Source: Escherichia coli (GTDB lineage Bacteria; Pseudomonadota; Gammaproteobacteria; Enterobacterales; Enterobacteriaceae). From it: a DNA stretch of 64,000 nucleotides. Below are positions 5,161 through 43,881 of this stretch, piece by piece; positions within the stretch are counted from its first letter, which is position 1, and every line of letters begins with the position of its first letter. Under the pieces are notes generated by a model. It was not told the DNA's origin, made no database searches, and saw only the letters and a program-made list of their open reading frames with translations. The stretch lies in the NCBI RefSeq assembly GCF_050920415.1, contig NZ_CP169309.1, one strand, 5' to 3'. The translations under genes and the position numbers were made by a program.

Positions 5161-6290
5161 AAACCTTCAGCGATCGCTGGCGACAACTGGACTGGGACGA
5201 CATCCGCCTGCGTATCAACAGCAAAACGGCTGCTGACGTAGAGCGGGCGCTCAATGCCTCGCAACTCACTCGCGACGATATGATGGCATTGCTATCACCT
5301 GCCGCCAGTGAATACCTGGAACCACTGGCTCAACGGGCGCAGCGTCTGACCCGTCAGCGATTTGGCAACGTCATCAGCTTCTACGTCCCGCTTTATCTCT
5401 CTAATCTTTGCGCTAACGACTGCACTTACTGCGGATTTTCCATGAGCAATCGCATCAAGCGTAAAACGCTGGATGAAGCGGATATCGCCAGGGAAAGCGC
5501 CGCTATCCGGGAGATGGGCTTTGAACATCTATTGCTGGTCACTGGTGAACATCAGACGAAAGTGGGGATGGATTACTTTCGTCGTCATCTCCCTGTCCTG
5601 CGTGAACAGTTCTCTTCACTACAGATGGAAGTACAGCCACTGGCGGAAGCGGAATACGCCGAGTTAAAGCAACTTGGTCTGGATGGGGTGATGGTTTATC
5701 AGGAGACATATCACGAGGCGACATACGCCCACCATCATCTGAAAGGGAAAAAACAGGACTTCTTCTGGCGGCTGGAAACGCCGGATCGGCTGGGCCGTGC
5801 GGGGATAGATAAGATAGGCCTCGGCGCGCTAATCGGCCTTTCCGACAGCTGGCGCGTTGACTGCTATATGGTTGCCGAACATTTGCTATGGCTGCAACAA
5901 CATTACTGGCAAAGCCGTTACTCTGTCTCCTTCCCGCGCCTGCGCCCGTGTACTGGCGGGATTGAGCCAGCGTCGATTATGGATGAACGCCAGTTAGTGC
6001 AAACTATCTGCGCCTTCCGCCTACTTGCGCCGGAGATTGAACTGTCACTCTCCACGCGGGAATCACCGTGGTTTCGCGATCGCGTTATTCCGCTGGCGAT
6101 CAATAACGTCAGCGCCTTCTCGAAAACGCAACCAGGTGGTTATGCCGACAATCATCCCGAGCTGGAACAGTTCTCACCGCACGACGATCGCAGACCAGAA
6201 GCGGTGGCCGCCGCGTTAACCGCTCAGGGTTTGCAGCCGGTGTGGAAAGACTGGGACAGCTATCTGGGACGCGCCTCGCAAAGGACATGA
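5157..6290 (+). CDS. thiH: 2-iminoacetate synthase (tyrosine lyase) ThiH, radical SAM, 377 aa
   Basis: ORF track; [10 protein letters not shown] radical-SAM motif; overlaps thiG stop by 4 nt. Confidence 0.93.
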
Positions 6291-6340
6291 GACAAAATGT
6301 AAGAACGTAAATTTATTCCGAGCAGCTACGGAAGATGAAA

Positions 6341-6377
6341 AACGCAAGGTTGTTGAAAGCGTTGCGTTTTTTTATGT
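6341..6377 (+). terminator. Putative rho-independent terminator of the thi operon
   Basis: Inverted repeat AACGCAA...TTGCGTT followed by a T7 run, about 50 nt after the thiH stop. Confidence 0.5.
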
Positions 6378-6539
6378 TAGTACCGTCAGCAGGAATGTTG
6401 TCCAGGGCGAAAAGCTTCTTCCTCGTTTCGCCCTGCCTTTCTTAAAAATTCCGTAATGCAAAGTCTGAAGCCATCGCCTGTTGAGCAATGAAAGAGATCT
6501 GATTGTAAGAGAGTAAATACTCAACTATCATAGAGACGA

Positions 6540-6707
6540 AAATAAGAACACATGTTCTCATCTTCCAGGATGCAGCAGACTGAAGAAATTCAGACATCCC
6601 GCAACCTGCGATTATCGCAAGGTCAAGGCAAAGTCCGGTAATGGCGTTCTGAATACCAGAGATAATTCTCTGGCGAAACCCACCTTAAGGTGGGTTTTGT
6701 TATTTTG
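6540..6707 (+). ncRNA. Candidate small RNA in the thiH-yjaZ intergenic region (possibly SroH-like)
   Basis: About 400 nt ORF-free spacer; plus-strand hairpin AACCCACC-TTAA-GGTGGGTT followed by a T-rich tract at 6678-6707; recalled from memory that an sRNA is annotated at this locus in K-12; 5' end not determinable from sequence. Confidence 0.3.
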
Positions 6708-7239
6708 ATGGCTGAGGAAGCTGCTTATTTCTCAATAAGTTGTAGGCAATGGTGAAAAATTTCACTGATTTACCTTTCTGTTTTTCAGAAATGGGATAAG
6801 CGCTAGTTACATGCAAACGAAGTTTTTTCTTTTCCCTGAAAGCCCTGAACGCAACAAAGTAAAATGCCTTGTCTCCTCCGTTTAAATCCACTTCAATCAC
6901 GGCATAGCTACCATACCCAGCATGAATAACGTTGCTTTCTGGCAGCGCCAAAATGGTTCTTTTTAAGTGTATGCGCGCTAAGTTATAACGGTGCTGGCAG
7001 AAGGGACGAGATTCTTTAGGCGCGTGGTACATTAACGATTGTTTTTCTTCGTTAGTCTGATGTTCATAATCTTTTGTGAAGCAGTGAAGAGAGTAGGTAA
7101 CCCAGAAGCGATACTCTAAAGGCTCTTTGCCCTCATGATGCTGAACGTAGACAGCCTGATGAGCATCAAGAAATGATAAATCACGAATATCACCATCCGG
7201 ATGTCCAAAAGGTCGCCACTTCTCCACTTCCTGTTTCAT
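6700..7239 (-). CDS. yjaZ: YjaZ/HtrC family protein, 179 aa
   Basis: ORF track; sequence recognisable as E. coli YjaZ. Confidence 0.88.
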   Translation of the reverse strand: MKQEVEKWRPFGHPDGDIRDLSFLDAHQAVYVQHHEGKEPLEYRFWVTYSLHCFTKDYEHQTNEEKQSLMYHAPKESRPFCQHRYNLARIHLKRTILALPESNVIHAGYGSYAVIEVDLNGGDKAFYFVAFRAFREKKKLRLHVTSAYPISEKQKGKSVKFFTIAYNLLRNKQLPQPSK

Positions 7240-7403
7240 TATCGTTCCTTAAGAAAGTCACACAGGAATAGTATCGAATTCTTGCCGAGCTTGACTCAAT
7301 TAGTTCAGTCAGTTTCAGGATATTAGTCATCTCTACATTGATTATGAGTATCCAGAAATTCATTAAATATTCTGACAAATGCTCTTTCCCTAAACTACCC
7401 CCA

Positions 7404-7431
7404 TAAAAAAACCCGCCGAAGCGGGTTTTTA
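7404..7431 (-). terminator. rpoC rho-independent terminator
   Basis: Minus strand: AAAAACCCGC-TTCG-GCGGGTTTTTTT, about 20 nt after the rpoC stop. Confidence 0.8.
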
Positions 7432-7451
7432 CGTTATTTGCGGATTAACGA

Positions 7452-10400
7452 TTACTCGTTATCAGAACCGCCCAGACCTGCGTTCAGCAGTTCTGCCAGG
7501 CTGGCAGATGCGTCTTCTGCAGTCACCTGCGGTGCAGCCGGAGCTTCACCCGCAGCACGGCGACGCATACGATCCTGGTGGTACGCGTAACCGGTACCTG
7601 CCGGGATCAGACGACCCACGATAACGTTCTCTTTCAGGCCGCGCAGTTCGTCGCGTTTGCCCGCAACGGCTGCTTCGGTCAGCACGCGAGTGGTCTCCTG
7701 GAACGATGCCGCGGAGATGAAGGACTCGGTTGCCAGAGACGCTTTGGTGATACCCAGCAGATCGCGGGAGTAAGTTGCACCCACTTTGCCGTTCGCTTCC
7801 AGTTCGCGGTTTGCGATCTTGACGCGAGAGTATTCAACCTGTTCGCCTTCCAGGAAGTCGGAGCTGCCCGCGTTAACGATGGTAGCTTTACGCAGCATCT
7901 GACGAACGATAACTTCGATGTGTTTATCGTTAATCTTAACGCCCTGCAGACGGTATACGTCCTGTACTTCATTAACGATGTAACGAGTCACAGCATGAAC
8001 ACCACGCAGACGCAGAATGTCATGCGGCGCTTCCGGACCGTCGGAAATTACGTCACCACGTTCTACACGTTCACCTTCGAACACGTTGAGCTGACGCCAT
8101 TTCGGAATCATCTCTTCATACGGCTCGCTACCGTCTACCGGGGTGATAACCAGACGACGTTTACCTTTGGTTTCTTTACCGAAGGAAACCACACCGCTGA
8201 TTTCAGCCAGGATTGCCGGCTCTTTCGGACGACGTGCTTCGAACAGGTCCGCAACGCGTGGCAGACCACCGGTGATGTCCTTGGTACCGCCAGATTCTTG
8301 CGGAATACGCGCCAGGGTGTCACCGGAGCTGATCTGTACGCCATCTTCCAGCTGAACAATCGCTTTACCCGGCAGGAAGTACTGCGCAGGCATGTCGGTA
8401 CCCGGGATCAGAACGTCGTTACCCTGAGCATCAACGATTTTCAGTGCCGGACGCAGATCTTTACCACCTGCGGTACGTTCTGCGGAATCCAGAACCACCA
8501 GCGAAGACAGACCGGTCAATTCGTCGGTCTGACGAGTAATGGTCTGGCCGTCGATCATGTCAGTAAAGCGTACAAAACCGCTTACTTCGGTGATAACCGG
8601 CATGGTGTGCGGGTCCCAGTTTGCAACGGTCTCGCCGCCAGCAACCTGTTCGCCATCGCCTTTCGCCAGTACTGCACCGTAAGGCACTTTATAGCTTTCT
8701 TTGGTACGACCGAATTCGTCGATCAATTTCAGTTCGGTGTTACGGGAAGTGATAACCAGTTTACCGCTGGAGTTCACAACCGACTTCACGTTGCTGAGCT
8801 TGATGCTACCTTTGTTTTTCACCTGGATGCTGGATTCAGCAGCCGCACGAGATGCCGCACCACCGATGTGGAACGTACGCATGGTCAGCTGTGTACCCGG
8901 TTCACCGATGGACTGTGCCGCGATAACACCGATTGCTTCACCTTTGTTGATGATGTGGCCACGTGCCAGGTCACGACCGTAGCAGTGCGCACATACACCA
9001 AAGTCGGTGTCACAAGATACAACAGAACGTACTTTAACCGCGTCGACAGAGTTCTCTTCCAGCAGGTCACACCACTGTTCGTGCAGCAGCGTGTTGCGCG
9101 GAACGAGGATATCAGCAGTACCCGGCTTCAGAACGTCTTCAGCAGTTACACGACCCAGTACGCGATCGCGCAGCGGCTCTTTAACGTCACCACCTTCGAT
9201 AACCGGAGTCATCATGATACCTTCATGAGTACCACAATCGTCTTCGGTAACCACCAGGTCCTGCGCCACGTCAACCAGACGACGAGTCAGGTAACCGGAG
9301 TTCGCAGTTTTCAGTGCGGTATCCGCCAGACCTTTACGAGCACCGTGGGTTGAGATGAAGTACTGGAGTACGTTCAGACCTTCACGGAAGTTCGCGGTGA
9401 TTGGCGTTTCGATGATGGAGCCATCCGGCTTCGCCATCAGACCACGCATACCCGCCAGCTGACGAATCTGTGCCGCAGAACCACGCGCACCGGAGTCGGC
9501 CATCATGTAGATGCTGTTGAAGGAAACCTGCTTCTCTTCCTGACCGTCACGGTTAATAACGGTTTCAGTTTGCAGATTATCCATCATCGCTTTGGATACA
9601 CGATCGTTCGCCGCAGCCCAGATATCGATAACTTTGTTGTAGCGTTCGCCCGCAGTTACCAGACCAGACTGGAACTGCTCCTGAATCTCAGCAACTTCAG
9701 CTTCTGCCTCGGAGATGATTTCGTGTTTCTTCTCCGGGATGACCATGTCATCGATACCAACAGATGCACCAGAACGCGCTGCATATGCAAAGCCGGTGTA
9801 CATGATCTGGTCCGCAAAAATAACGGTCGGTTTCAGACCGAGAATGCGGTAGCAGGTGTTCAGCATTTTGGAGATTGCTTTCTTACCCAGCGCCTGGTTG
9901 ACGATGGAGTAAGGCAGACCTTTCGGTACAATCATCCACAGAATAGCACGGCCAACGGTCGTATCTTTCAGGCTGGTTTTCGCTACTAATTCACCGTTAG
10001 CATCTTTTTCATACTCGGTGATACGCACTTTAACGCGCGCATGCAGAGAAGCCAGACCAGAGCGATACAGACGTTCTGCTTCTTTCGGGCCAGTCAGCAC
10101 CATGCCTTCGCCTTTGGCGTTAACACAGTCGCGGGTCATGTAGTACAGACCCAGTACAACGTCCTGAGACGGAACGATGATTGGTTCGCCGTTCGCCGGG
10201 GACAGGATGTTGTTGGTAGACATCATCAGCGCACGCGCTTCCAGCTGGGCTTCCAGCGTCAGCGGTACGTGAACAGCCATCTGGTCACCATCGAAGTCGG
10301 CGTTATATGCCGCACAAACCAGCGGGTGCAGCTGGATAGCTTTGCCTTCGATCAGTACCGGTTCAAATGCCTGGATACCCAGACGGTGCAGAGTCGGTGC

Positions 10401-11675
10401 ACGGTTCAGCAGTACCGGGTGTTCGCGGATAACTTCGTCCAGGATATCCCAAACGACAGCTTCTTCGCGCTCAACCATTTTCTTCGCAGCTTTAATGGTG
10501 GTAGCAAGACCACGCAGTTCCAGCTTGCCGTAGATGAACGGTTTGAACAGTTCCAGTGCCATTTTCTTCGGCAGACCGCACTGATGCAGACGCAGGTATG
10601 GACCTACGGTGATTACAGAACGACCGGAGTAGTCAACACGCTTACCGAGCAGGTTCTGACGGAAACGACCCTGTTTACCTTTGATCATGTCGGCCAAAGA
10701 TTTCAGAGGACGCTTGTTAGAACCAGTGATCGCACGACCACGACGACCGTTATCCAGCAGGGCGTCTACCGCTTCCTGCAGCATACGTTTTTCGTTACGT
10801 ACGATGATGTCCGGCGCAGCCAGATCCAGCAGACGTTTCAGACGGTTGTTACGGTTAATGACGCGACGATACAGATCGTTCAGGTCAGAAGTCGCGAAAC
10901 GACCACCATCCAGCGGAACCAGCGGACGCAGATCTGGCGGCAGTACCGGCAGAACGGTCAGGATCATCCACTCTGGTTTGTTACCAGACTGAACGAACGC
11001 TTCCAGCAGTTTGATACGCTTGGTCAGCTTTTTACGCTTGGTTTCGGAGTTGGTTTCGTTCAGCTCTTCACGCAGCTGTTCGCACTCTTGCTCCAGATCC
11101 ATGCTCTTCAGCAGAGCCTGGATTGCTTCCGCACCCATTTTCGCGTCGAATTCGTCACCGAACTCTTCCAGCGCGTCCAGATACTGCTCTTCAGTCAGGA
11201 TCTGCTGACGCTCCAGGTTGGTCATACCGCCTTCGATAACCACATAGGATTCGAAGTACAGTACGCGTTCGATATCGCGCAGCGGCATATCGAGCAGCAG
11301 GCCGATACGGGACGGCAGCGATTTCAGGAACCAGATGTGCGCAGTCGGGGAAGCCAGTTCGATGTGGCCCATACGCTCACGGCGTACTTTAGTCTGGGTC
11401 ACTTCAACGCCGCACTTCTCACAGATGACGCCACGGTGTTTCAGGCGCTTGTACTTACCGCACAGGCACTCGTAATCTTTTACCGGCCCAAAGATACGGG
11501 CGCAGAAAAGGCCGTCACGTTCTGGTTTGAACGTACGGTAGTTGATGGTTTCCGGCTTTTTAACTTCACCGAAAGACCATGAACGGATCATGTCTGGCGA
11601 AGCCAGAGCAATTTTGATCGCATCAAACTCTTCGGTTTTAGTCTGCGCTTTCAGAAACTTTAATAAATCTTTCAC
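7452..11675 (-). CDS. rpoC: RNA polymerase beta' subunit RpoC, 1407 aa
   Basis: ORF track; full-length recognisable RpoC (NADFDGD catalytic motif). Confidence 0.98.
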
Positions 11676-36068: not shown

Positions 36069-37469
36069 ATGCCACATTCCTACGATTACGATGCCATAGT
36101 AATAGGTTCCGGCCCCGGCGGCGAAGGCGCTGCAATGGGCCTGGTTAAGCAAGGTGCGCGCGTCGCAGTTATCGAGCGTTATCAAAATGTTGGCGGCGGT
36201 TGCACCCACTGGGGCACCATCCCGTCGAAAGCTCTCCGTCACGCCGTCAGCCGCATTATAGAATTCAATCAAAACCCACTTTACAGCGACCATTCGCGAC
36301 TGCTCCGCTCTTCTTTTGCCGATATCCTTAACCATGCCGATAACGTGATTAATCAACAAACGCGCATGCGTCAGGGATTTTACGAACGTAATCACTGTGA
36401 AATATTGCAGGGGAACGCTCGCTTTGTTGACGAGCATACGTTGGCGCTGGATTGCCCGGACGGCAGCGTCGAAACACTAACCGCTGAAAAATTTGTTATT
36501 GCCTGTGGTTCTCGCCCTTATCATCCAACAGATGTTGATTTCACCCATCCACGCATTTACGACAGCGACTCAATTCTTAGCATGCACCACGAACCGCGCC
36601 ATGTACTTATCTATGGTGCTGGAGTGATCGGCTGTGAATATGCGTCGATCTTCCGCGGTATGGATGTAAAAGTGGATCTGATCAACACCCGCGATCGTCT
36701 GCTGGCGTTTCTCGATCAGGAGATGTCAGACTCTCTCTCCTATCACTTCTGGAACAGTGGCGTAGTGATTCGTCACAACGAAGAGTACGAAAAGATCGAA
36801 GGCTGTGACGACGGTGTGATTATGCATCTGAAGTCGGGCAAAAAGCTGAAAGCCGACTGTCTTCTCTATGCCAACGGTCGTACCGGTAATACCGATTCGC
36901 TGGCGTTACAGAACATTGGGCTGGAAACTGACAGTCGTGGACAGCTGAAGGTCAACAGCATGTATCAGACCGCACAGCCGCACGTTTACGCGGTGGGCGA
37001 CGTGATTGGTTATCCGAGCCTGGCGTCGGCAGCCTATGACCAGGGGCGCATTGCCGCGCAGGCGCTGGTGAAAGGTGAAGCCACCGCACATCTGATTGAA
37101 GATATCCCTACCGGCATTTACACCATTCCGGAAATCAGCTCTGTAGGCAAAACCGAACAGCAGCTGACCGCGATGAAAGTGCCGTATGAAGTGGGCCGCG
37201 CCCAGTTTAAACATCTGGCACGTGCACAAATCGTTGGCATGAACGTGGGTACGCTGAAAATTTTGTTCCATCGGGAAACAAAAGAGATTCTGGGCATTCA
37301 CTGCTTTGGCGAACGCGCTGCCGAGATTATCCATATCGGGCAGGCGATAATGGAACAGAAAGGTGGCGGCAACACTATTGAGTACTTCGTCAACACCACC
37401 TTTAACTACCCGACGATGGCGGAAGCCTATCGGGTAGCCGCGTTAAACGGTTTAAACCGCCTGTTTTAA
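36069..37469 (+). CDS. sthA: Soluble pyridine nucleotide transhydrogenase SthA (UdhA), 466 aa
   Basis: ORF track; FAD-binding GSGPGG motif. Confidence 0.95.
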
Positions 37470-38369
37470 CACTTTATCGAAATGGCCATCCATTCTTGCG
37501 CGGATGGCCTCTGCCAGCTGCTCATAGCGGCTGCGCAGCGGTGAGCCCGGACGATAAACCAGGCCAATAGTGCGGCGTGGTTCCGGCTTAATACACGGCA
37601 AATAAACAACCCCATCGCGTTTGCGCTCCGGCGGCACAGCCAGTGCAGGCAGTAAAGTGATCCCGCTACCTGCCGCCACCATGTTGCGCAGAGTTTCCAG
37701 GCTGGTCGCGCGGAAGTGTGTATCTTCATCCGCCCCGGCTTCAAAGCAGAAACCCATTGCCTGATCGCGCAAACAGTGACCATCTTCCAGCATCAGCAGT
37801 TTTTCCCCTGCCAGATCGGCCATCGGTACGCATTCGCGGTTCGCCCACGGGTGATCTTCATAGATAGCCAGCAACATTGGCTCATCAAACAACGGCACTT
37901 CAATGAATGCTTCGCTCTCTTTCACCAGCGCGAGGATCACGCAATCGAGTTTGCCGCTGTCCAGTTGCGCCAGTAACTGGTGGGTCTGTGCTTCATGCAG
38001 ATACATTTCCAGCTTTGGAAAGGTCTGGTGCAGCATCGGAATAATATGCGGTAACAGGTAAGGCCCAACCGTGGGAATCAAACCAATATGCAGCGGCCCG
38101 GACATTGTCTCGCCCTGCTGGCTTGCCATCTCTTTAAGGACTTTCACCTCACGCAGCACGGTACGCGCCTGATCCACCAGCAGCATTCCCGCCTGGGTGA
38201 ACAACACTTTACGGCTGGTCCGCTCCAGCAACATCACGCCCAGCTCATCTTCCAGCTTACGAATTTGCCCGCTAAGCGTCGGCTGGCTAACGTGGCAGGA
38301 ATCTGCCGCACGCCGAAAATGACGGTGTTCAGCCAATGCCACCAGGTACTCAAGATCACGAATATTCAT
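37452..38369 (-). CDS. oxyR: LysR-family hydrogen peroxide sensor/regulator OxyR, 305 aa
   Basis: ORF track 37452..38399; canonical start [18 protein letters not shown] at 38369; redox cysteines present (HCLRDQ and CIKPEP contexts); 18-nt convergent overlap with sthA. Confidence 0.95.
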
Positions 38370-38464
38370 TATCCATCCTCCATCGCCACGATAGTTCATG
38401 GCGATAGGTAGAATAGCAATGAACGATTATCCCTATCAAGCATTCTGACTGATAATTGCTCACA
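38370..38464. promoter_or_regulatory. Divergent oxyR/oxyS promoter region with OxyR operator
   Basis: 95 nt between the oxyR start and the oxyS 5' end; repeated ATAG-type elements; assignment from the known oxyR-oxyS architecture. Confidence 0.6.
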
Positions 38465-38578
38465 GAAACGGAGCGGCACCTCTTTTAACCCTTGAAGTCA
38501 CTGCCCGTTTCGAGAGTTTCTCAACTCGAATAACTAAAGCCAACGTGAACTTTTGCGGATCTCCAGGATCCGCTTTTT
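38465..38578 (+). ncRNA. oxyS: OxyS small regulatory RNA
   Basis: Sequence GAAACGGAGCGGCACCTCTTTTAACCCTTGAAGTCACTGCCCGTTTCGAGAGTTTCTCAACTCGAATAACTAAAGCCAACGTGAACTTTTGCGGATCTCCAGGATCCGCTTTTTTTT recognised, including the terminal hairpin and U-tract. Confidence 0.88.
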
Positions 38579-38620
38579 TTTATTCTACAGGCCCACAGCA
38601 AGAGAGCCTGATAGTAACAG

Positions 38621-39904
38621 TTACTCAATCCGATCTTTGACAATAAAGAAGTAACACAGCGCCCCGGTGAACGTCACACAGGCCGCGATAACCAGCGCCA
38701 GATTAAACGAGTGCGTGGTATCCACTACCCAACCGGTTACGATCGGAGCAAAGGAAGCAAAAACAAAACTGCCAAAGTTTTGAATCCCGGCGATGGAAGC
38801 CACTTTTGTTTCTGACACCATCACCTGCACCAGTCCCCATGCAGATGTTCCCGCGAAATGCACGCAGAACAGCGCCATTGAGATAAACGCTACAGCCTGG
38901 GCTGGCGAGGAGGATTGCACGACCAGCAACGTGCCTAATGCCGACATCATCAAACCGCAAACAATAGCCGTTTTACGCGTCTTCGCCAGGTCGTAGCCTT
39001 TTTTCGCCAGCCGATCGACAACAATACCGTTAACCCACATCCCGACCGCCGCCGCGAGGAAAGGAATCGCCGCCACCCAACCGGTTTTCGCCAGACTGAA
39101 GCCTTGCTCGGCTTGTAAATAACCGGGTAACCACGCGATGTAGAGCCAACCGGTATAATTGACGCCAGAGAAACCTAAAATCATCCCCCAGGTTGTCCGA
39201 TGCTTAAACAGCGCCAGCCACTCGCTAAATTGTAATTGTGGACGCGGTTTAACCGGCGCGGAGAGATAGGTCCGTTCTTCGTCGGTCAGGACAAACTGCG
39301 CCCGGTTGCGATACCACGCGTACCAACAGATCCCAACCAGAATCCCCGCCACGCCGATGATGACGAACATTGCCCGCCAGCCCCATGCCAGCTGCATCAA
39401 TACAAGAGCAGGAGGCGCAATAGCCTGACCGATAACGGTAGATGAGTTAAAAATCCCCAGCGCCGTGCCGCGTTCTTTTTGCGCATACCAGTCGGTGATC
39501 GACTTTACTCCCGCAGGCATAAATGGCGCTTCGCCAATACCCAGACCGATACGCATTAAAATAAAGTGGCTAAAAGAATTAACCATTCCTGTTAATGCCT
39601 GCATTAATGACCAGAATATTAAGCCTGCGCCTAAAACTATTCGTGGGCCAAAGCGGTCTAGCAAAATACCGGAAGGGAGTTGTGAAAAACCATAAGACAG
39701 AGAAAATGCAGAAAGCAAAACGCCAAATTCTGTCGCCGATAATCCTAACTCGCCACGAATCGCTTCGCCTGCCACGCTCAATGACGAACGGTCGAGGAAA
39801 TTAACGATCCCCGCCATAAATAATAAAACCAGCGTTACTGTCTGAATACGACGAATCCGTTGCGGTTTATTACCCGCAACACTGGTTGACACATCAACGT
39901 CCAT
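38621..39904 (-). CDS. MFS transporter, anion:cation symporter (ACS) family; putative sugar-acid (hexonate/hexuronate-type) permease, 427 aa
   Basis: ORF track; 12-TM hydrophobicity pattern; N-terminal NFLDR motif and overall similarity to DgoT/ExuT/GudP-type permeases; not at this locus in K-12 as I recall it. Confidence 0.8.
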   Translation of the reverse strand: MDVDVSTSVAGNKPQRIRRIQTVTLVLLFMAGIVNFLDRSSLSVAGEAIRGELGLSATEFGVLLSAFSLSYGFSQLPSGILLDRFGPRIVLGAGLIFWSLMQALTGMVNSFSHFILMRIGLGIGEAPFMPAGVKSITDWYAQKERGTALGIFNSSTVIGQAIAPPALVLMQLAWGWRAMFVIIGVAGILVGICWYAWYRNRAQFVLTDEERTYLSAPVKPRPQLQFSEWLALFKHRTTWGMILGFSGVNYTGWLYIAWLPGYLQAEQGFSLAKTGWVAAIPFLAAAVGMWVNGIVVDRLAKKGYDLAKTRKTAIVCGLMMSALGTLLVVQSSSPAQAVAFISMALFCVHFAGTSAWGLVQVMVSETKVASIAGIQNFGSFVFASFAPIVTGWVVDTTHSFNLALVIAACVTFTGALCYFFIVKDRIE

Positions 39905-39970
39905 TTTTAGCTCCTTGAGCGGAATTAATCGATTTGCTGACTATTCAGAAAATAATTAAGCGAACCGTTA

Positions 39971-41185
39971 TTACCAGTTCCACAATGTGCCATCTTCCAG
40001 TCGTGCGACGGGGAGATACGCCGGGTCATACGGATATTTCGCCGCCAGTTTCTCATCGAAAGAAATACCCAGCCCCGGTTCATCGCCTGGGTGCATATAA
40101 CCTTCATCGAAGCGCCAGCTGTGCGGGAAGACTTCAAGCATTTGTTCGGAATAGCCCATGTACTCCTGAACGCCAAAGTTTGGCACCCAGAGGTCAAAAT
40201 GCAGCGCCGCCGCATGACAAACAGGCGATAAATCTGAAGGGCCATGCGAACCGGTACGTACCTGATAAAGCGATGCAAAATCGGCAATCCGTCGCATCCC
40301 GGTAATGCCGCCTGCATGGGTAATCGTCGTGCGAATATAGTCAATCAGCTGCTCTTCGATTAACTGCTTGCAGTCCCAGATACTGTTAAACACTTCACCG
40401 ACCGCAATCGGCGTCACAGTATGCTGGCGAATCAGACGAAAACATTCCTGGTTCTCGGCAGGCGTCGGATCTTCCATCCAGAACAGGCGGTAATCCTCAA
40501 TGCTCTTCCCAAAGCGCGCCGCTTCGATAGGAGTCAGGCGATGGTGCATGTCATGCAACAGATGTTCGTTAAAACCGAACTTATTACGCACCGCTTCAAA
40601 TAACTTCGGTGTAAAATCGAGATACTTTTCTGAAGACCACAACTGCTCTTCCGGCCACAGGCCTTTGGTTGCCGGTTCATACGCCAGTCCTTTGCCCTTC
40701 GCCAGGCCATAAGTGGTTTGCATACCCGGTACACCGCACTGCACACGAATCGCCTTAAAGCCCATCAGCTGGTGCTTTGCATAGTCTTCAAGGACTTCAT
40801 CAATCGTGCGCCCGGTGGTGTGGCAATAAACCATCACGCCTTCACGAGAAGCCCCACCAAGCAGTTGATACAATGGCATATTTGCCGCTTTGGCTTTGAT
40901 ATCCCACAACGCCATATCAATGGCAGAAATGGCCGACATCGTGACGGGGCCACGTCGCCAGTAAGCACCTTTATAAAAGAATTGCCAGATATCTTCGATA
41001 CGGCTGGCATCGCGGCCAATTAATTGTGGACAAAGATGATCTTTCAGATAAGAAGCGACCGACAATTCGCGACCATTTAATGTGGCATCTCCCAATCCAC
41101 AAAGTCCGCTTGCAGTGGTTATTTTAAGCGTAACGAAATTACGTCTTGGGCAAGTAACAAAAACATCTGCAGCAATAATTTTCAT
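39971..41185 (-). CDS. Enolase-superfamily dehydratase, D-mannonate dehydratase (ManD)/RspA subgroup, 404 aa
   Basis: ORF track 39971..41245; start moved to ATG at 41185-41183 ([13 protein letters not shown]), preceded by RBS CAGGAG; hallmark RspA/ManD blocks [54 protein letters not shown]. Confidence 0.85.
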
Positions 41186-41670
41186 TATTGCAATCTCCTG
41201 TGTTGTAAATAGATGCTTCAAACTTAATTTTACGCCTACTACCATACAAGAGAGAAAGAGCGATTATTCAACCGTGATCACATTAAAAATAAAAATTTCC
41301 GCCGAGGAGAAAAAACACCCTCAAAAACCACCTGAATAATTAACCATTATCGTTAAAACAACACGTTAAATAATCACATAACAAACTCCATTAATCATTA
41401 AATATGAGCGCAGCAATAGAAATGAATTATATTCAATTAATTAAAATATGTATTGATTGATGTATTGAAAATATGATTTTCATGGGGAGAGTGAAGGTAA
41501 AGAAGACGCAAGAATAAAAAGGAATATGACAAATAATAGTTCTGGTTGGGCGTTAAATTTAAGGTCACCAGAATGCTGACAAATTTCTGCCTGAGGCAGT
41601 CCGCCTACGTAGTGTCGCTACTTTATAGGCGTGGTAAGCTCCCCATTTTCAGGGGAGCAATATAAACCAA
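41186..41670 (-). promoter_or_regulatory. AT-rich upstream region of the accessory operon (putative promoter)
   Basis: About 485 nt ORF-free, locally very AT-rich (e.g. 41340-41560), between the argH stop and the dehydratase start; no promoter elements assigned. Confidence 0.4.
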
Positions 41671-43044
41671 TTACCCCAACCGCGCCTGCGCAAAAGCAAT
41701 CGCCTGCGCCACCTGCTGCGGGGAGACGCCGCCTTTTGCCGCACGCTTGTCGAGGCACGATTGCAGCGACAGAATCGGATAGACATCTTCGCCAATCACC
41801 TCGCTGAATTTCTGCAACTCACTGAGCGGCAGTTCTTCCAGCGGTTTGCCCTGACGAATGGCTTCCACCACCGCTTCACCAACAATATGGTGCGCCTCGC
41901 GGAACGGCACACCTTTCGCCACCAGGTAATCCGCCAGTTCAGTGGCGTTCGCATACCCCTGCTGCGCCGCTTCCTGGCAACGTGGGCGTTTCACCTGAAT
42001 CCCGTCCAGCACCAGCGCCGCCATATGCAGGCAGTCCAGCCAGGTATCGAGCGCATCGAACAGACCTTCTTTGTCTTCCTGCATATCTTTGTTATAGGCC
42101 AACGGCAGACCTTTCAGCGTCATCATCATGCCGGTCAACGCGCCCTGAACACGACCGCATTTACCGCGAATCAACTCCAGCGCATCCGGGTTTTTCTTCT
42201 GCGGCATTAATGATGAACCGGAAGTAACACGATCAGAAAGCTCCACAAAACCCGCTTCGCCGGTGTTAAAGAAAATCAGATCTTCGGCAAAACGCGACAA
42301 ATGCACCATACCGATAGCGGCGGCAGATAGCAGTTCCAGCACGTGGTCGCGGTCAGAAACGCTGTCGAGACTGTTACGGGTCGCCGAGGCAAAGCCCAGC
42401 CAGCCTGCTAACTGTTCACGGTCGATTTCATAGGCCGTTCCCGCCAGGGCGCCACAGCCTAGCGGGCTGACATCCAGACGCTTAAGCGCATCCTGCAAAC
42501 GGCTTTCATCACGCGCCAGCATCTCAACATAGGCCAGGCACCAGTGCGCAAACGTCACCGGCTGGGCGCGTTGCAGGTGAGTGTAACCAGGCATTACCGC
42601 GTCCTGATTATTCTGCGCGGTTTCCACCAGCGCCGATTGTAACTGTCGGTTAGCCGTCAGCAACTCGCTAACGGTATCCTTGCACCACAGTTTCAGGTCA
42701 GTCGCTACCTGATCATTACGGCTACGCCCGGTATGCAGTTTTTTGCCTAACTGGCCCACTTTGTCGATCAGTTTGCCTTCCACCCAGCTATGGATATCTT
42801 CGGCGTCGCTTTCAAGAATTTGTTGTGGCCTGGCGCGAACATCTTCCAGCAGCACATTGAGCGCCTCTTCCAGTTGCACCTGTTCTTCTGCGGTTAACAC
42901 GCCTACCGTTACCAGCGCTTTGGACCAGGCCACAGAGCCAACAATATCCTGCTCCGCCAGACGGTAATCAAAGCGCAGTGAGTCGTTGAATTGTTTAAAC
43001 CGTTGATCTGCTGCCTGGGTAAAACGCCCGCCCCAAAGTGCCAT
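41671..43044 (-). CDS. argH: Argininosuccinate lyase ArgH, 457 aa
   Basis: ORF track; recognisable sequence. Confidence 0.96.
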
Positions 43045-43104
43045 AACTCTGTTTCCTTATTTTGAAATTCAATGCCAGAAAGCTACGTCTCTGGCCAACA
43101 AAAC

Positions 43105-43881
43105 TTAAGCTAAAATCCGCGTACCCATCGGCATACCGTTAAACAGTGCCGGAAGCTGTTCCGCATGACGCCAGGAGGCAATATCTACCGGGCGACCCAG
43201 CGTGCGCGCAGCGTCCAGCGCCGCGTTCACTTTCACTATCATGCCGTCAGTAATAATGCCCTGCTCAATCAGTTGTTCTGCTTTCGCTGCGGTCATTTCG
43301 GCAATACGTTGCCCTTTGCCGTCGAGAATACCGCTGACATCAGAGAGCAAAATCAGATCCGCGCCCAGCGTTGCCGCCAGCGCCGTCGCCGCCTGGTCAG
43401 CATTGACGTTCATCAGTTGCCCTTCGTCCGTTACGCCAATGGAGCTGACCACTGGTAGATAACCGTTTTCCAGCAACGTGTTGATAAGCTTAGGCGAACC
43501 TGGCTGCGCCAGTCCAACATGGCCTAACTCTTCATCGAGCTGGGTCACTTTTACGCTGTCGCCGTCACCGAGAAACAAACCTACGGCTGCAATCTGATGT
43601 TTCTTCGCCCATGCCAGCAGGGTTTTATTTGCCGTTCCCGCCAGCGCTCCGGTGATAATGTCTATCTGATCCGCAGGCGTCACCCGCAGGCCGTTTTTCT
43701 TTTTCACCGGCAGATTCAGTCCTTTCATCAGCTCATCCACCACGCAGCCGCCGCCGTGGACAATCACCAGCGGACGCTGATGTGACTCGCGATAATTCAC
43801 CAGGGCGCTAAACAGACGTTCCAGCGCCTCTTCACTATCCAGCAGTACGCCGCCCAGTTTGATAATTAATGGATTCATCAT
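43105..43881 (-). CDS. argB: Acetylglutamate kinase ArgB, 258 aa
   Basis: ORF track 43105..43914; start set to [11 protein letters not shown]. Confidence 0.93.

Follow-up and report, generated by a model that had tools for sequence, protein, structure and literature searches.

A two-gene dehydratase-permease operon in a variable Escherichia coli island, with a predicted link to the rsp regulon and to D-mannonate catabolism

Introduction

The RspA protein was named 'starvation-sensing' in 1994, and its physiological role has been unclear since. Some Escherichia coli strains carry a second gene for a protein of this kind outside the rsp locus, which raises the question of what an additional RspA-like enzyme does, which acid sugar it handles and how it came to be there. 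The gene was studied here in a stretch of 64,000 nucleotides of E. coli (RefSeq assembly GCF_050920415.1, contig NZ_CP169309.1), hereafter referred to as the window. A previous reading of the same letters, the original prediction, had described the product as a dehydratase of the ManD/RspA subgroup of the enolase superfamily, whose gene would add a further paralogue to rspA and have a dedicated permease as its partner, and whose substrate could not be read from the sequence.

The gene alone is ordinary, as it is already known and annotated as manD in RefSeq in 1,860 of 5,426 complete E. coli genomes, and its product is 91% identical to a crystallised enzyme. What is new here is the link that the permease and the promoter make between the island carrying the gene and both the rsp regulon and the mannonate node. 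The literature on the island, on a mannonate transporter and on ydfJ, ydfI and rspA was searched and yielded nothing useful.

The dehydratase gene and its product

The coding sequence of the dehydratase lies on the minus strand at 39971..41185 and encodes a protein of 404 amino acids with the N-terminus MKII. Its ATG at 41185 is preceded, across a 9-nt spacer, by the Shine-Dalgarno sequence AGGAG (41195..41199, minus strand). The ORF listing of the window gives a longer frame of 424 amino acids at 39971..41245 on the same strand. The start at 41185 is regarded as the right one because both the RefSeq coding sequence and the N-termini of the orthologues agree with it: all of the 18 orthologues extracted from other genomes have exactly 404 residues and begin with MKI(V/I), and the nearest RefSeq genome (NZ_CP169399.1) has a coding sequence of the identical 1,215-nt extent, annotated as 'manD, D-mannonate dehydratase ManD' (WP_000690949.1). 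The same start had originally been chosen, with the ORF call judged 20 codons over-long, and the AGGAG, the 18 orthologues and RefSeq all agree with that choice. The extra 20 codons (41186..41245, minus strand) form a 5' untranslated leader running into the promoter, and the mechanical ORF call overshoots because these codons cross the leader and the promoter, in which a conserved 11-mer lies at 41239..41249.

The protein matches RspA from E. coli CFT073 (PDB 4IL2; E = 2.8e-268, 893 bits) and ManD from Pectobacterium carotovorum (PDB 4E4F; E = 8e-267, 888 bits) over residues 1-404 with zero gaps, and the Novosphingobium ManD (2QJJ) across the same residues with E = 8e-181. About a dozen further structures of the ManD subgroup match over their full length at ~600-630 bits, the range of the high-efficiency ManDs; 4E4F, 2QJJ and the Chromohalobacter proteins 3OW1 and 3BSM all belong to this same subgroup. 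Moreover, the NCBIfam equivalog NF043051, 'D-mannonate dehydratase ManD', is matched at 726.3 bits, with a curated cut-off of 550 bits, and the MR_MLE N- and C-terminal domains (PF02746 and PF13378) are found on orthologues of the dehydratase. Judged by these comparisons, membership in the ManD subgroup is far beyond chance, and the matches to 4IL2, 4E4F and NF043051 bear out the family assigned at the outset.

The K-12 RspA and the window protein are identical at 369 of 404 positions (91%) in a gap-free alignment. The identical positions include R147 (in KAIRVQ), Y159 (in TTYG) and H214, as well as D212 (LLHDMHH), E238 (FWMEDP) and E264 (AVGEVF). In the ManD of N. aromaticivorans, the Mg2+ ligands are said to be Asp210, Glu236 and Glu262, as reportedly established by Rakus et al. 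in 2007, and D212, E238 and E264 were equated with them by the +2 offset implied by the lengths of the two proteins (402 versus 404 amino acids). R147 and Y159 are presumably the base dyad, on the 150-180s loop, with H214 as the general acid and D212, E238 and E264 as the Mg2+ ligands. Loss of the Mg-binding or general-base residues, which the original prediction had named as evidence against its own proposal, was looked for by comparison with RspA, and none of these residues is lost. At 91% identity and with the catalytic residues unchanged, the sequence gives no grounds for expecting a chemistry unlike that of RspA.

An old relative of rspA rather than a recent copy

Nearly all E. coli have rspA as a gene of its own, with matches in 5,377 of 5,426 genomes, 5,025 of them at a coverage of at least 80%, which supports the view of the island gene as an additional paralogue. 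The RspA proteins of K-12 and CFT073 (4IL2) are like the island protein in their length of 404 residues, their 91% identity without gaps and their catalytic residues. In contrast, the island gene is found between argH and oxyS, whereas rspA lies between ynfA and rspB, and the gene downstream encodes a permease in the island and the dehydrogenase RspB in the case of rspA. Since the island manD is not in the ynfA-rspA-rspB-...-rspR locus, it is not the rspA orthologue by position.

The nucleotide identity between rspA and the island manD is 79.9%, and the RspA genes of different genera share 77-83%. The Nei-Gojobori dS is ~2, and thus saturated, against any RspA, with an omega of 0.02-0.03 across genera. 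In a neighbour-joining protein tree, the island copies are monophyletic in 200 of 200 bootstraps and sit on a rather long branch; their clade is sister to E. coli RspA in none of the 200, its commonest sisters being Enterobacter sp. kpr-6, Siccibacter and Kluyvera. Additionally, at nine positions (4, 29, 61, 137, 156, 161, 361, 369 and 375) the state fixed in the island clade is seen in none of 16 RspA orthologues. A protein identity of 91% but a nucleotide identity of 80% with a dS of ~2 means that the island manD is not a recent duplicate; it is an old paralogue or xenologue of rspA. A recent duplication of rspA is ruled out by these divergence figures together with the tree, and the near-identity that had been named as a reason to reject a distinct enzyme is not what is seen. 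The original prediction is supported in each of its elements (subgroup, additional paralogue, permease partner and start codon); simple duplication is excluded, while an enzyme distinct from RspA in its chemistry is unsupported.

The island between argH and oxyS

When the K-12 segment is compared with the window by blastn, homology ends exactly at the argH stop codon and restarts at the 3' end of oxyS. Between these two points the window has an island of 3,089 bp (38582..41670) in place of 54 bp in K-12. Read on the minus strand, the island consists of a 485-bp AT-rich leader (32-37% GC), manD, a 66-nt spacer and the permease gene. Directly past the argH stop lies a hairpin, GCTCCCCTGAAAATGGGGAGC (41638..41658, minus strand), a putative terminator which, by sequence comparison with K-12, occupies the position of the K-12 argH terminator hairpin. 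At the other end, the OxyS small RNA (38465..38574, plus strand; 139.5 bits in Rfam) lies 46 nt past the permease stop codon and is convergent with the permease gene. Transcripts of the island operon that read through would lie antisense to oxyS but sense to oxyR, and the same holds for argH read-through in K-12.

Of the 5,426 complete E. coli genomes, 1,860, or about a third, carry the island in full. Nissle 1917, O104:H4, O103:H2, an ST38 strain and strain E50 are among them, and the annotation gives both genes as intact in each of these five. It is also found at the same site, with 99% protein identity, in E. whittamii and two further Escherichia species. Against E. whittamii and Escherichia sp. 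E1V33, manD has a dS of 0.15-0.37 and the permease gene one of 0.27-0.28, and the same comparisons give 0.17-0.40 for the flanking genes argB, argH, oxyR and sthA; the omega of the island genes within Escherichia is 0.01-0.04. Because the dS equals that of the flanking genes and the omega is low, these values indicate that the island has long been present in the genus, has diverged at the same pace as its flanks and has been kept under purifying selection. The simplest account of its absence from K-12 is a loss.

Two other origins were considered and rejected. Recent horizontal acquisition does not agree with a coding GC typical of E. coli and a dS equal to that of the flanks against other Escherichia, and, as for insertion by a mobile element, direct repeats and mobility genes were not seen at the island ends in the compared sequences.

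The site itself varies further. In an E. coli ST38 strain of phylogroup-D type (NZ_OZ204848.1, 1..1712), genes for an L-ribulose-5-phosphate 3-epimerase and an FGGY-family kinase, and not argH, lie directly upstream of manD, and these different neighbours imply a larger sugar-utilisation insertion at the site in some lineages. Furthermore, the region 36069..43881 of the window shows, against K-12, dS values that are high for a within-species comparison (argH 0.20, argB 0.18, sthA 0.15, oxyR 0.08), and manD alleles at least 99% identical to that of the window occur in 157 genomes only. These figures point either to a divergent lineage as the source of the window or to a recombinant origin of this region.

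The partner permease and the rsp locus

The second gene of the operon (38621..39904, minus strand) is intact, has AAGGAG before its ATG and encodes a permease of the major facilitator superfamily (MFS) of 427 amino acids, for which PF07690 (MFS_1) is recorded. It lies 66 nt downstream of manD on the same strand, so that the two genes form a two-gene operon and the dedicated permease partner that had been proposed is indeed present. The permease is of the anion:cation symporter type and is related to DgoT, the D-galactonate:H+ symporter, whose structure (PDB 6E9N) is its best solved relative (E = 4e-57 over residues 13-424). Nevertheless, its score of 275 bits against the NCBIfam D-galactonate transporter subfamily (TIGR00893) is below the cut-off of 395 bits, and for this reason it is not a DgoT orthologue. 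The two proteins share the anion:cation symporter type, that of sugar-acid transporters, at the family level, and the permease has no characterised orthologue.

Orthologues of the permease with 82-89% amino-acid identity are found in Raoultella, Klebsiella, Enterobacter, Pluralibacter, Lelliottia, Siccibacter, Atlantibacter, Kluyvera and Cedecea, and in every such genus, a dozen enterobacterial genera besides Escherichia in all, the gene is located inside the rsp locus (rspA-rspB-ydfJ-ydfI-rspR). Two orders are seen: ynfA > permease > rspA > rspB > ydfJ > ydfI > usp < rspR < ydfG, and ynfA > rspA > permease followed by the remaining genes. No such permease gene is present in the E. coli rsp locus examined, and the Pectobacterium gene encoding 4E4F likewise lies in a classical rspA-rspB-ydfJ-ydfI-rspR operon without the 427-residue permease. 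The order of the island, with the rspA-like gene followed by the permease gene, matches that of Lelliottia, Siccibacter, Kluyvera and Enterobacter sp. kpr-6, and the island resembles a piece of the enterobacterial rsp locus, rspA with the permease gene, that has moved to another site together with its promoter. One record with a typical Enterobacteriaceae rsp locus is titled Chryseobacterium sp. 18061; its layout is that of Citrobacter sp. 18056 from the same study, and the assembly is probably mislabelled or contaminated.

Two further neighbourhoods are informative about the permease. The Atlantibacter locus contains rspA together with genes for a glucuronate isomerase, a GPH-family transporter and a fructuronate reductase, followed by the permease gene and rspR, and its predicted products make up a complete route from glucuronate to 2-keto-3-deoxy-D-gluconate (KDG) in which the mannonate dehydratase is RspA. 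A permease gene (71%) and uxuA form a two-gene unit in Rouxiella badensis, with a divergent gene for a GntR-family regulator and unrelated genes beyond, so that UxuA there adjoins the permease orthologue in the place that ManD has in the Escherichia island. The metagenomic contexts of homologues at 50-56% identity, taken from a representative library, were uninformative, and relatives at 42-43% identity (Allorhizobium and a Bryobacteraceae MAG), as well as the Shimwellia locus, gave no hint of a pathway.

The promoter and its predicted control by RspR and CRP

Apart from the 11-mer TTGTATGGTAG, the invariant core of the rsp-regulon promoters, the intergenic stretches that precede rspA, the permease gene and ydfI are poorly conserved across genera. 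The 11-mer is found upstream of these genes in every rsp locus examined, in 35 distinct promoter segments. In the 64-kb window this 11-mer has a single match, at 41239..41249 on the minus strand, where it overlaps the right half of the RspR box and the -35 region. In K-12, RspR (YdfH) footprints 31 bp of the rspA promoter in DNase experiments, centred on ATACnnGTAT, as described by Shimada et al. (PMC8249747), and acts as a repressor with a single genomic target (PMC8249747). A reporter study gives the RspR and CRP sites at rspAp as known (bioRxiv 10.1101/2025.05.13.653802). The 11-mer spans the right half of the K-12 palindrome ATACTTGTAT and the next five bases, and it falls within the 31-bp footprint reported for K-12 rspA (PMC8249747).

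The island equivalent of the 10-bp RspR box, TCTCTTGTAT (41244..41253, minus strand), keeps the right half and the adjoining invariant GGTAG, whereas its left half reads TCTC against the published ATAC. Across the compared promoters, the left half-site takes three forms, ATAC ahead of rspA genes, xTTC ahead of those for the permease and YdfI, and, in the Escherichia island, TCTC; xTTCTTGTAT also occurs at the permease and ydfI promoters of genera with rspR nearby. Upstream lies a CRP-like site, TGTGATCACGGTTGAA (41267..41282, minus strand), with TGTGATC at 41282..41276. Its TGTGA starts 33 nt upstream of the 11-mer, which is the same spacing as at K-12 rspA, and a TGTGA at this distance is found in 30 of the 35 promoter segments. 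The island promoter is therefore like that of rspA in its CRP-like site, its 11-mer core and their spacing, and differs from it in the diverged left half-site of the RspR box. Two candidates for the -10 element can be proposed on the minus strand: TAAGTT (41226..41221), which lies 17 nt past TTGTAT in the K-12 geometry and is suggested by analogy with the mapped start of K-12 rspA, and TAAAAT (41232..41227), an alternative read from the sequence. A consensus scan called no canonical sigma-70 promoter at the island promoter.

Most probably, the resident RspR (YdfH) acts in trans on the island operon, which would also depend on CRP; this control is put forward as a prediction, not a result, because one half-site has diverged. 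The upstream region of K-12 ydfI (10915..11002 of the K-12 stretch L035) does not contain the 11-mer, which fits the report of a single RspR target in K-12. In Raoultella and Lelliottia, ydfI has its own promoter with the 11-mer (L005 15193, L019 10820, L020 12193). The Rouxiella permease promoter lacks the 11-mer.

Proposed function and alternative explanations

The informative associations of the permease, namely the rsp locus, the Atlantibacter cluster and the Rouxiella UxuA unit, lead to the D-mannonate node of hexuronate and hexonate catabolism. The cargo would be D-mannonate or a compound one step away from it, because members of the same transporter family adjoin two non-homologous mannonate dehydratases; the pairing of ManD or UxuA with the permease, with nothing else in the operon, suggests this substrate and is the strongest hint available. 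The substrate, originally said to be unreadable from the sequence, is thus less open than it was, since the neighbours of the permease point to this node. UxuA, for which the same reaction as for the island ManD is predicted, is non-homologous to it, with an unrelated fold and family, and uxuA is a member of the UxuR/ExuR regulon.

The explanation favoured here, to which about an even chance is given, is that the operon takes in D-mannonate or a close precursor and yields KDG by dehydration, under the control of RspR and CRP, with an ancient second copy of RspA as the enzyme. As part of this explanation, the dehydratase would be functional and Mg2+-dependent, acting on acid sugars as a member of the ManD subgroup. 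The permease, a proton-coupled MFS transporter, would import D-mannonate or a sugar acid one step away; the Tyr159/Arg147 dyad would take the C2 proton, the resulting enediolate would be stabilised on the Mg2+ held by Asp212, Glu238 and Glu264, and His214 would assist the loss of the 3-OH, giving KDG. KdgK and then Eda would process this product, whose handling by these two enzymes is established E. coli biochemistry. The operon would be repressed in trans by RspR (YdfH) and activated by cAMP-CRP.

The RspA of CFT073 is reportedly a low-efficiency D-mannonate dehydratase for which Wichelecki et al. are said to have found no physiological role in 2014, and RspA-type enzymes were reportedly poor mannonate dehydratases in vitro and showed no phenotype; given this low efficiency the true substrate may not be D-mannonate. 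As most genera pair the permease with rspB and ydfI, L-gulonate, fructuronate and glucuronate are also possible cargoes. A longer pathway is accordingly conceivable, if unlikely, in which the permease imports L-gulonate, D-fructuronate or D-glucuronate, RspB, YdfI/UxuB and UxaC make D-mannonate, and the island dehydratase, as part of the same reading, would contribute no more than extra capacity at the final step. The permease gene is indeed co-operonic, in most genera, with ydfI and with rspB, which encodes a Zn-dependent dehydrogenase; moreover, ydfI scores above the NCBIfam 'fructuronate reductase' cut-off, a glucuronate isomerase gene lies beside the permease gene in Atlantibacter, and RspB, YdfI and RspA reportedly form a cryptic L-gulonate pathway in CFT073 (Wichelecki et al., 2014). 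However, rspB is always accompanied by a second transporter gene, ydfJ, whose product could serve L-gulonate; Kluyvera, Enterobacter sp. kpr-6 and the Escherichia island have the permease but neither rspB nor ydfJ beside it, and in Rouxiella it is found with a mannonate dehydratase only. More doubtful still is a reading in which the permease carries another acid sugar, the real substrate, and RspA-type enzymes are only promiscuous on D-mannonate; with the same low probability, permease and dehydratase would be a minimal self-contained module for that sugar acid, D-mannonate being a weak surrogate. The low efficiency reported for RspA-type ManDs would fit this, and very strong purifying selection (an omega of 0.02-0.03 across genera) despite the presence of UxuA in the same species speaks for a role that is not redundant, but every informative neighbourhood belongs to the route from hexuronates through mannonate to KDG, and NCBIfam treats the family as a ManD equivalog.

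Signs of decay bear on whether the operon has any current function in the lineage of the window. Compared with six other island alleles, the window protein has the private replacements G14R and Q140L and is the sole one with E25A; the closest allele (99.5% nucleotide identity) has G14 and Q140, and Gly14 is invariant in 24 other compared sequences. In the nearest RefSeq genome (NZ_CP169399.1), manD is identical and one base differs across the whole island, producing R88* in the permease gene, which is annotated there as a pseudogene (8222..9505, corresponding to 38621..39904 of the window, where the copy is intact). Citrobacter sp. R56 has the same island at the same site, between argH and oxyR (6196..8284), with the promoter kept (AATCTTGTATGGTAG, with TGTGATC upstream) and an intact permease (92% amino-acid identity), while its manD is internally deleted and fuses the first ~30 to the last ~25 codons. 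Taken together, these observations suggest that some backgrounds can do without the dehydratase and that the terminal lineage of the window may be under relaxed constraint; the R14/L140 allele is predicted to be catalytically competent. That the operon is a decaying cryptic relic would account for these replacements, for the stop codon and the deletion, and for the two thirds of E. coli genomes that lack the island, yet it is quite improbable in view of the two intact ORFs of the window, the omega of 0.01-0.04 within Escherichia and the intact state of both genes in five diverse strains. That the gene is simply redundant, as a recent intragenomic duplicate of rspA, can be given hardly any credence: the same length and the 91% amino-acid identity speak for it, and against it stand the 80% nucleotide identity with its saturated dS of ~2, an island clade that never groups with E. 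coli RspA, an E. coli rsp locus without a counterpart of the partner permease, and the presence of the island at the same site in E. whittamii and a Citrobacter species.

Implications

Seen in its context, this variable island of E. coli is a displaced piece of the rsp regulon that supplies the permease missing from the E. coli rsp locus, and it is apparently still wired to RspR and CRP. Should the favoured explanation of D-mannonate uptake and dehydration be true, strains with the island, and not K-12, should import D-mannonate or a near relative of it, and a third of E. coli strains should hold a second target for RspR, which in K-12 is reported as a single-target regulator. If instead the module is for another sugar acid, its two genes, naturally present or absent, would be the simplest handle on the physiological substrate of the RspA family. 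The island also provides a natural and simple setting in which to study the role of the poorly understood RspA enzymes.
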